DNA from: a phage
Sequence record: EF517112.1
Reading direction: 5' to 3' (one strand)
DNA length: 555 nucleotides
The first letter of the stretch is position 1, and the number at the start of each line of letters is the position of its first letter. The notes beneath the pieces were generated by a model that ran no database searches, was not told the DNA's origin, and saw only the letters and a list, made by a program, of their open reading frames with translations. A program made the position numbers and the translations under genes. Below are positions 112 through 261 of this stretch, piece by piece.

Positions 112-261
112 ATGTTCCGCTTATTGTTGAACCTACTGCGGCATAGAGTCACCTACCGATTTCTTGTGGTACTTTGTGTTGCCCTTGGGTACGCATCTCT
201 TACTGGAGACCTCAGTTCACTGGAGTCTGTCGTTTGCTCTATACTCACTTGTAGCGATTAG
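112..261 (+). CDS. 19.5: T7-type gene 19.5 protein: 49 aa small basic/hydrophobic protein of unknown function (MFRLLLNLLRHRVTYRFLVVLCVALGYASLTGDLSSLESVVCSILTCSD)
   Basis: ATG at 112-114 and in-frame TAG at 259-261, translated by hand codon by codon. GGAGG at 101-105 sits 6 nt upstream of the ATG. It is the only ORF in the window with a credible RBS. The protein and the surrounding DNA match my recollection of T7 gene 19.5 immediately left of the terminal repetition. The product has a basic N-terminus (R3, R10, H11, R12, R16), a hydrophobic core (about F17-L30) and an acidic, Cys-containing C-terminus (C22, C42, C47). Confidence 0.88.
   Translation: MFRLLLNLLRHRVTYRFLVVLCVALGYASLTGDLSSLESVVCSILTCSD

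Follow-up and report, generated by a model that had tools for sequence, protein, structure and literature searches.

Gene 19.5 of a T7 variant encodes a predicted single-span membrane protein and a candidate accessory factor in the timing of lysis

Most holins carry a charged, usually basic, cytoplasmic C-terminal tail. Holin regulators and antiholins, such as lambda S107 and T4 RI, are small membrane-associated proteins that shift the timing of lysis and are dispensable for lysis itself; T4 RI acts via its periplasmic domain. The lysis peptides of the ssRNA phages, for instance MS2 L, are the products of sole lysis genes and measure ~50-75 residues. In phage T7, deletion of the only known holin gene barely delays lysis; something else helps to open the membrane, and the product of gene 19.5 (gp19.5) has been a published candidate since 2009.

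In that work (Heineman, Bull and Molineux 2009; PMC2680503) a second holin-like activity was postulated in T7, and gp19.5, described as a predicted short membrane-spanning protein on the basis of a TMHMM-predicted span, was named as the candidate second holin. A TMHMM-predicted span has also been published for the gp19.5 homologue of Yersinia phage AP5 (PMC4283147). When T7 lacking the holin gene 17.5 was evolved, the A24D substitution in gp19.5 was the only strongly compensatory change, and it was predicted to destroy the membrane span; in an otherwise wild-type background, A24D led to lysis 2 min later (PMC2680503). In the same study E38G arose in a T7 line with disrupted endolysin function, the effect of the gp19.5 allele depended on the presence of the holin, the effect on burst size was not significant (P = 0.24), and late lysis and small plaques were noted for the Kim and Chung deletion, which removes 19.5 together with the M-hairpin (PMC2680503). 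Both A24D and E38G appeared again, in independent work, in another T7 without its holin gene (Xu et al. 2021; PMC8365609), and 19.5 mRNA was increased 1.7- to 4.5-fold in holin-deleted T7 (PMC8365609). The 19.5 transcript is the most abundant one late in T7+ infection (PMC6938266), and the gene was dispensable in genome-reduction screens (PMC9825161). The clean deletion proposed as a check in the original prediction for the DNA analysed here is also on record: seamless removal of 19.5 alone made the plaques small and lowered the burst from 224 (wild type) to 152 (PMC12153263, 2025). As 19.5 has been deleted in T7 genome-reduction work, this fitness cost is relevant to phage engineering (PMC12153263, PMC9825161).

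The original prediction stated that no function had been assigned to 19.5 in T7. The link to lysis timing and the second-holin hypothesis were already published in 2009 (PMC2680503); the proposal, in the original prediction, of an accessory factor in lysis is supported, and the same idea has been in print since then. Gene, family, membrane-span prediction and lysis hypothesis all predate the present analysis. The analysis presented here adds no categorically new result, and it sharpens the experiment to be done, in which point mutants are preferred over deletions.

Identity and spread of gene 19.5

The window, i.e., the whole stretch of 555 nucleotides that was analysed (sequence record EF517112.1), is 98.7% identical to positions 39278-39832 of T7 (NC_001604) and represents the right-hand end of a T7-like genome. 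An open reading frame at positions 112-261 on the + strand, with an ATG start, 49 codons and a TAG stop, occupies the position at which T7 annotates 19.5. Its 49-amino acid product, MFRLLLNLLRHRVTYRFLVVLCVALGYASLTGDLSSLESVVCSILTCSD, is 98% identical to T7 gp19.5, the sole difference being A23V (nt 179). This change is conservative; Val is the second commonest family residue at position 23 (29%). A Shine-Dalgarno sequence, GGAGG, is found on the + strand at 101-105, six bases 5' of the ATG, in agreement with the strong ribosome-binding site that had been claimed. The terminal repeat begins at position 501, and 501-555 correspond to the first 55 nt of the 160-bp repeat of T7, with one substitution. 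The T7 annotation shows no gene past 19.5 in the terminal repeat part, and 19.5 had been rightly described as the last gene before the repeat. The window protein and T7 gp19.5 also share their length, their ribosome-binding site and their placement, with gene 19 on one side and the terminal repeat on the other. The phiOR promoter of T7 maps to 39229, 49 nt upstream of the window start. We conclude that the frame at 112-261 is the 19.5 gene of a T7 variant, and that it is a real, translated late gene. The placement of 19.5 inside the packaging-signal region, also part of the original prediction, is presumed here, in keeping with the pattern of conservation.

Taken alone, the reading frame is unremarkable, because 889 of 2000 shuffles of the window gave an ATG open reading frame of equal or greater length (at least 49 amino acids); in 96 of 2000 a Shine-Dalgarno-like motif was present as well. 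The reality of the gene is carried by comparative evidence. Fifty-two related loci (15 annotated loci and 37 IMG/VR loci) were compared, and an intact open reading frame of 49-59 amino acids with a Shine-Dalgarno-like motif before its start was present in 52 out of 52. A few loci use GTG or TTG, both valid initiation codons, as alternative starts. The gene order (terminase, 19.5, terminal repeat) was invariant in the loci checked, and the gap between gene 19 and 19.5 was 214-297 nt, or 610-736 nt with inserted DNA. In 12 non-redundant sequences, the second codon positions were the least variable and the third ones the most (mean entropy of 1.06, 0.71 and 1.31 at positions 1, 2 and 3, respectively). 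At the invariant residues T14, F17, L18, G26, C42 and C47 the third positions vary (entropy 0.8-1.55), and therefore conservation acts on the protein, not on the DNA only.

The pooled pN/pS of 19.5 was 0.36-0.56 in the low-to-moderate divergence bins, whereas the last 150 codons of gene 19, used as a control in the same genome pairs, gave 0.04-0.07. This pooled ratio with its control was judged more reliable than single-pair dN/dS, which was 0.11-0.18 among the Pseudomonas phages and near 1 between T7 and single distant relatives; the latter value is not taken to mean that selection is lacking, as it is based on only ~40 synonymous sites with a depressed pS. The ratios indicate that gp19.5 is under purifying selection, far weaker than that on the terminase.

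It could be argued that the reading frame is incidental, the DNA being kept as a packaging or processing signal and the peptide having no function. Frames of equal length are common by chance, DNA conservation in this region is strong between closely related phages, and 19.5 is non-essential. However, the frame is intact in all 52 loci, among genera whose proteins are just 31-65% identical, and the Shine-Dalgarno motif is retained in all of them. The second codon position is the most conserved and the third the least, codons vary where the amino acid is invariant, and the ratio of nonsynonymous to synonymous change goes down to 0.11-0.18 among the Pseudomonas phages. Finally, missense changes with phenotypes recur (PMC2680503, PMC8365609). 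We consider an incidental frame highly improbable, and this explanation is already close to refuted.

By score, position and signature residues, the window protein can be assigned to the T7 gp19.5 family. It scored 86.7 bits with the NCBIfam equivalog model NF040465 'T7_gp19.5' (cut-off 33), and residues 31-49 matched Pfam PF17553 DUF5465 with 41.9 bits (E 6.5e-11, cut-off 25). It also matched phrog_2193 (function unknown) with an E of 5.9e-25; this family is matched by 113 of the 113 aligned members. The signature H-R-x-T-Y/W-R-F-L, G26, E38 and C-x4/5-C, with family frequencies of 90-100%, is complete in the window protein.

Conservation outside T7 was readily found. The protein was detected by tblastn in 931 phage records, and a profile search of a 5.8-billion-protein collection returned 270 family proteins; a single-sequence search of this collection gave 6, compared with the 270 obtained with the alignment. 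Every fetched record bearing a full taxonomy line belongs to the Studiervirinae, and the genera represented are Teseptimavirus, Teetrevirus, Przondovirus, Kayfunavirus, Pifdecavirus, Ningirsuvirus, Eapunavirus, Berlinvirus and Helsettvirus. A HMMER profile search of 1.84 billion representative proteins gave 36 matches, 35 of them of 35-92 amino acids; the 29 of these 35 that were read were all family members or frameshifted fragments. The remaining match, to an 897-amino acid repeat protein, was judged spurious. The profile search over the 1.84 billion representatives revealed neither a wider superfamily nor a bacterial relative, and the family is compact. When the PDB was searched with the family profile, just TAL-effector repeats and antibody chains were returned; they were judged spurious because none of the TAL-effector stretches and only one antibody stretch passed alone. 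Comparison of the AlphaFold model, which is short and of modest confidence, with viral structures by Foldseek gave no match.

Two members of the family deserve a comment. An ENA contig encodes a natural read-through variant of gp19.5 (P0004, 78 amino acids), in which the stop codon is replaced and the protein extends 29 residues into the frame of the short open reading frame at 280-348 of the window (MAHRGIQRYDCITPLHPYRVKS). The record MT350293.1 (hit H46), named 'Enterococcus phage EFA-2', has a genome of 39,964 bp and carries a T7-type 19.5 with 78% identity over residues 13-49; its host label (Enterococcus faecalis) is probably wrong, or the result of contamination.

Predicted membrane span and conserved residues

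Conservation was scored in the alignment of 113 family members. Residues 1-16 (positions 112-159, + strand) are predicted to be cytoplasmic and to form a short hydrophobic/amphipathic N-terminal helix, followed by the basic motif L-x-H-R-x-T-Y/W-R. This segment has four Arg, one His and no acidic residue; R3, R10, H11, R12 and R16 account for the five Arg/His that had been counted in the first 16 residues. L8 (93%), H11 (92%), R12 (90%), T14 (98%), Y/W15 (100%) and R/K16 (100%) are conserved here. Residues 17-30, FLVVLCVALGYASL (positions 160-201, + strand), make up the hydrophobic core of the predicted transmembrane helix, with a Kyte-Doolittle mean of 2.44, and they correspond to the core of 14-17 residues that had been described. 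F17 and L18 are conserved in 99% each and V20 in 92%. The core contains the small-residue motif A24-x-G26-x-A28: a small residue (A/S/T) occupies position 24 in 100% of the members, G26 is found in 99% (small residue in 99%), and position 28 (A/T/S) is small in 99%. Residues 31-49 (positions 202-258, + strand) comprise a variable polar linker and then an amphipathic helix, L-E-x-x-x-C-x-x-L-x-C; they are net acidic and predicted to be periplasmic, and E38 (93%), C42 (99%) and C47 (100%) are conserved in them.

The original prediction of an acidic C-terminus with three cysteines was correct in part. Residues 31-49 are indeed acidic, with three acidic residues and no basic one. The cysteines of the window protein are at positions 22, 42 and 47; C42 and C47 are conserved, but C22 sits in the hydrophobic core and occurs only in T7 and phages closely related to it. 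Between the last two cysteines the spacing is five residues in 100 of the 113 members and six in 12, and the pair is missing from a small number of the most divergent members.

The best 19-mer of the window protein has a Kyte-Doolittle value of 1.72 and a Wimley-White octanol sum of -5.07 kcal/mol. For T7's own gp19.5 these values are 1.59 and -4.11, and for the A24D allele the Kyte-Doolittle value is 1.31, which is much worse. The family median is 1.59, just below the usual threshold of 1.6, which is reached by 54 of 113 members; a negative octanol sum was obtained for 96 of 113. Without interruption, hydrophobic residues extend over only 12-14 positions. The membrane reading in the original prediction is supported, with the reservation that the hydrophobic stretch is marginal in length. 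Over the 113 members, Lys plus Arg number 4.31 on average ahead of F17 and 0.12 beyond position 30, whereas Asp plus Glu average 0.06 on the N side and 2.51 on the C side. From this strict charge split, an N-in/C-out orientation is predicted by the positive-inside rule.

AlphaFold2, run with the 113-sequence alignment, gave helices at residues 2-9, 12-31 and 34-48 with modest confidence (mean pLDDT of 66.6), and the central helix, at 20 residues, has the right length for one span. Hence the conserved hydropathy and charge asymmetry of 113 members, the AlphaFold helix and the published TMHMM results all agree with the small single-pass membrane protein that had been proposed, and gp19.5 is most likely, by prediction, a small inner-membrane protein with one span. 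In the literature we found no experimental proof of membrane insertion or hole formation by gp19.5. Absence of a predicted transmembrane segment, of conservation outside T7 and of a phenotype on deletion or overexpression was to count against the original prediction; a predicted span, conservation outside T7 and a deletion phenotype were all found.

Comparison with lysis proteins and a proposed role

Holins have one or two spans (T7 gp17.5 is annotated as type II). Like them, gp19.5 is small and late and has a predicted membrane helix, and gp19.5 alleles shift the timing of lysis (PMC2680503). Unlike holins, gp19.5 shows no sequence or profile similarity to this class, its tail is acidic where a basic one is expected (three acidic and no basic residues in the C-terminal part), and its gene does not adjoin endolysin or holin genes, since gene 19 (1.76 kb) lies between 19.5 and both the spanin genes 18.5/18.7 and the holin gene 17.5. 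On the established T7 map, the lysozyme gene (3.5) is located far upstream. Furthermore, deletion of 19.5 delays lysis or shrinks plaques, but lysis is not abolished. No Pfam holin family matched the window protein at E up to 10. A match to phrog_4712 'holin' (E 0.033) was discarded as composition noise, only 2 of 113 members matching it, and kinship with the T7 holin gp17.5 was likewise rejected (hhalign probability of 0.09%).

Unlike a relative of the antiholins, gp19.5 has no homology to lambda S107 or T4 RI, and we know of no gp19.5-gp17.5 interaction. The likeness to antiholins lies in small size, predicted membrane association and an influence on lysis timing by a protein that is dispensable for lysis, and in the dependence of the gp19.5 allele effect on the presence of the holin (PMC2680503). 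The lysis peptides of the MS2 L type resemble gp19.5 in layout: their N-terminal part is basic, and they have a hydrophobic segment and a short motif that is conserved. Unlike MS2, however, T7 has a full set of holin, endolysin and spanin, and there is no sequence relation between gp19.5 and MS2 L.

We propose, with a probability of about 0.5, that gp19.5 is a one-span inner-membrane protein with an accessory holin-like or holin-modulating function, which tunes the timing of lysis together with the gp17.5 holin. Residues 1-16, a short hydrophobic helix followed by the basic belt H-R-x-T-Y-R, would lie in the cytoplasm, and a helix of ~20 residues (~12-31) would span the membrane. The invariant A24-x-G26-x-A28 face would probably pack on another helix, from a second gp19.5 molecule or from a partner protein. 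The C-terminal helix, amphipathic and acidic, would face the periplasm with E38, C42 and C47 on its polar side, where these residues could form a disulfide or an interaction site; for the C42/C47 pair a disulfide or a metal role may be considered. By acting beside gp17.5, gp19.5 would tune membrane permeabilisation and hence the timing of lysis, as an accessory rather than an essential lysis gene product. The positions of A24D and E38G are among the most constrained in the 113 members (a small residue in every member at position 24, Glu in 93% at position 38), and this fits substitutions that may alter or abolish gp19.5 function.

Several observations do not sit easily with lysis tuning. Similarity to holin families is absent, the C-terminus is acidic, in contrast to the basic C-terminal tails of most holins, and the deletion phenotypes could reflect lost cis-acting DNA. 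For gp19.5 as a simple second holin, it is awkward that A24D, which is predicted to destroy the span, helps a phage without a holin. Mutagenesis would best be aimed at the invariant small face A24-x-G26-x-A28, E38 and C42/C47.

Conserved DNA around 19.5 and alternative roles

In 17 close T7 relatives (among loci L001-L031), the third-position diversity was 0.074 in 19.5 vs 0.139 in gene 19, and the most conserved DNA of the window was the 5' half of 19.5 together with the non-coding stretch 286-405. Nucleotide diversity was 0.032 at 101-114, compared with 0.24 in the leader 1-100. The low third-position diversity of 19.5 and its nearly invariant 5' half point to a putative constraint at the DNA or RNA level that would overlap the 19.5 coding sequence. 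Because 19.5 sits in unusually conserved DNA, its deletion may remove a cis-acting signal, and 19.5 deletions are not cleanly interpretable.

The transcribed leader from phiOR to the ribosome-binding site (positions 1-90) is the most variable part of the region, with a diversity of 0.23-0.29 in the 17 relatives, and contains a near-perfect palindrome, TGCATAAAATATGCA, at 7-21. An inverted repeat at 291-331 has 19-nt arms that are 74% complementary and a 3-nt loop. Its diversity in the 17 relatives is 0.00-0.016, within the most conserved DNA of the window; the single-strand DNA fold of 291-331 was no better than that of shuffles (z = -0.87), so that the stability of a hairpin does not by itself account for the conservation of the repeat. 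We take this repeat to be, probably, the 'M-hairpin' site of concatemer processing. The G303A change of the window removes one base pair from it. The heptamer CCTAARG is present in six same-strand copies (31-37, 344-350, 381-387, 394-400, 423-429 and 541-547), against 0.28 expected, and 0 of 200 shuffles reached six. These copies are the short repeats beside and within the T7 terminal repeat; the one at 31-37 was created by G35A (T7 has CCTAGAG), and the T7 copy at 517-523 was destroyed by C518T.

The main rival to lysis tuning is a role of gp19.5 in DNA maturation, as a small accessory to concatemer processing or packaging at the right end, e.g., by helping to form the nearby M-hairpin, with late lysis and small plaques being secondary to slowed DNA maturation. 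A role in concatemer processing or packaging was suggested by Kim et al. 1997 (cited in PMC2680503). The position of 19.5, flanked by the large terminase gene and the terminal repeat, is constant, although gene order is conserved across T7-like genomes and position alone tells us little. The inverted repeat at 291-331 falls in the most conserved DNA of the region, the burst falls when 19.5 is deleted (PMC12153263), and contact with nucleic acid through the conserved basic motif H-R-x-T-Y-R is conceivable. On the other hand, the hydrophobic core, the basic/acidic split and the invariant cysteine pair look like those of a membrane protein rather than a DNA-binding one, and no similarity to packaging families was found in Pfam, PHROGs, NCBIfam or the PDB. 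Moreover, the compensatory substitutions are specific to lines with damaged lysis genes (PMC2680503, PMC8365609). A primary role in DNA maturation seems unlikely to us.

A membrane peptide that acts outside lysis, in superinfection exclusion, interference with a host envelope protein or counter-defence, has also to be considered; the deletion phenotypes would then come mostly from the loss of cis-acting DNA. Synonymous variation in 19.5 is about half that in gene 19 (see the diversities above), and the 5' half of 19.5 is nearly invariant, with a diversity of 0.015-0.045 at all codon positions. The protein evolves fast relative to the terminase, as is frequent in host-interaction proteins (pN/pS of 0.36-0.56 vs 0.04-0.07). 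Against such a role, lysis is altered by the point substitutions A24D and E38G and not by deletions alone (PMC2680503), and a very high late transcript (PMC6938266) is not suggestive of early host takeover. The PADLOC models gave no match with gp19.5 at E up to 1, and a published exclusion or defence phenotype was not found. The superinfection and host-interaction options of the original prediction found no support, and a function outside lysis has, in our estimate, a small probability.

It is also conceivable, with a still lower probability, that the locus has a dual role. The 19.5 DNA, with the downstream inverted and heptamer repeats, would be part of a cis-acting signal for concatemer processing and packaging, and the peptide, with its cysteine pair in the periplasm, would be a membrane timer that senses the redox or energy state of the envelope and couples the end of DNA maturation to the start of lysis. 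If so, the published deletion phenotypes mix effects of the DNA and of the peptide.

A Rfam scan of the window gave nothing credible (one snoRNA match at E 0.29), and a scan for promoters and terminators found no more than in shuffles. The window differs from reference T7 at positions 14, 35, 77, 179, 268, 303 and 518, and 7 of 7 differences are G:C-to-A:T transitions. This bias points away from natural divergence and to a putative T7 lineage that had been treated with a chemical mutagen or heat, or deaminated. No identical record was found in the phage collection, the best being 98.7% identical, and the exact sequence of the window protein is not on record; A23V is found, together with two further changes, in a UniRef T7 entry (P0001, A9XLB6). 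The long gap of 610-736 nt between gene 19 and 19.5 is present in loci L009, L010, L012, L021-L023, L025-L028, L030, L042 and L049, and where the extra DNA is annotated it carries a putative homing endonuclease or a hypothetical open reading frame. Mobile elements seem to insert preferentially in this gap, which precedes phiOR and 19.5 directly.
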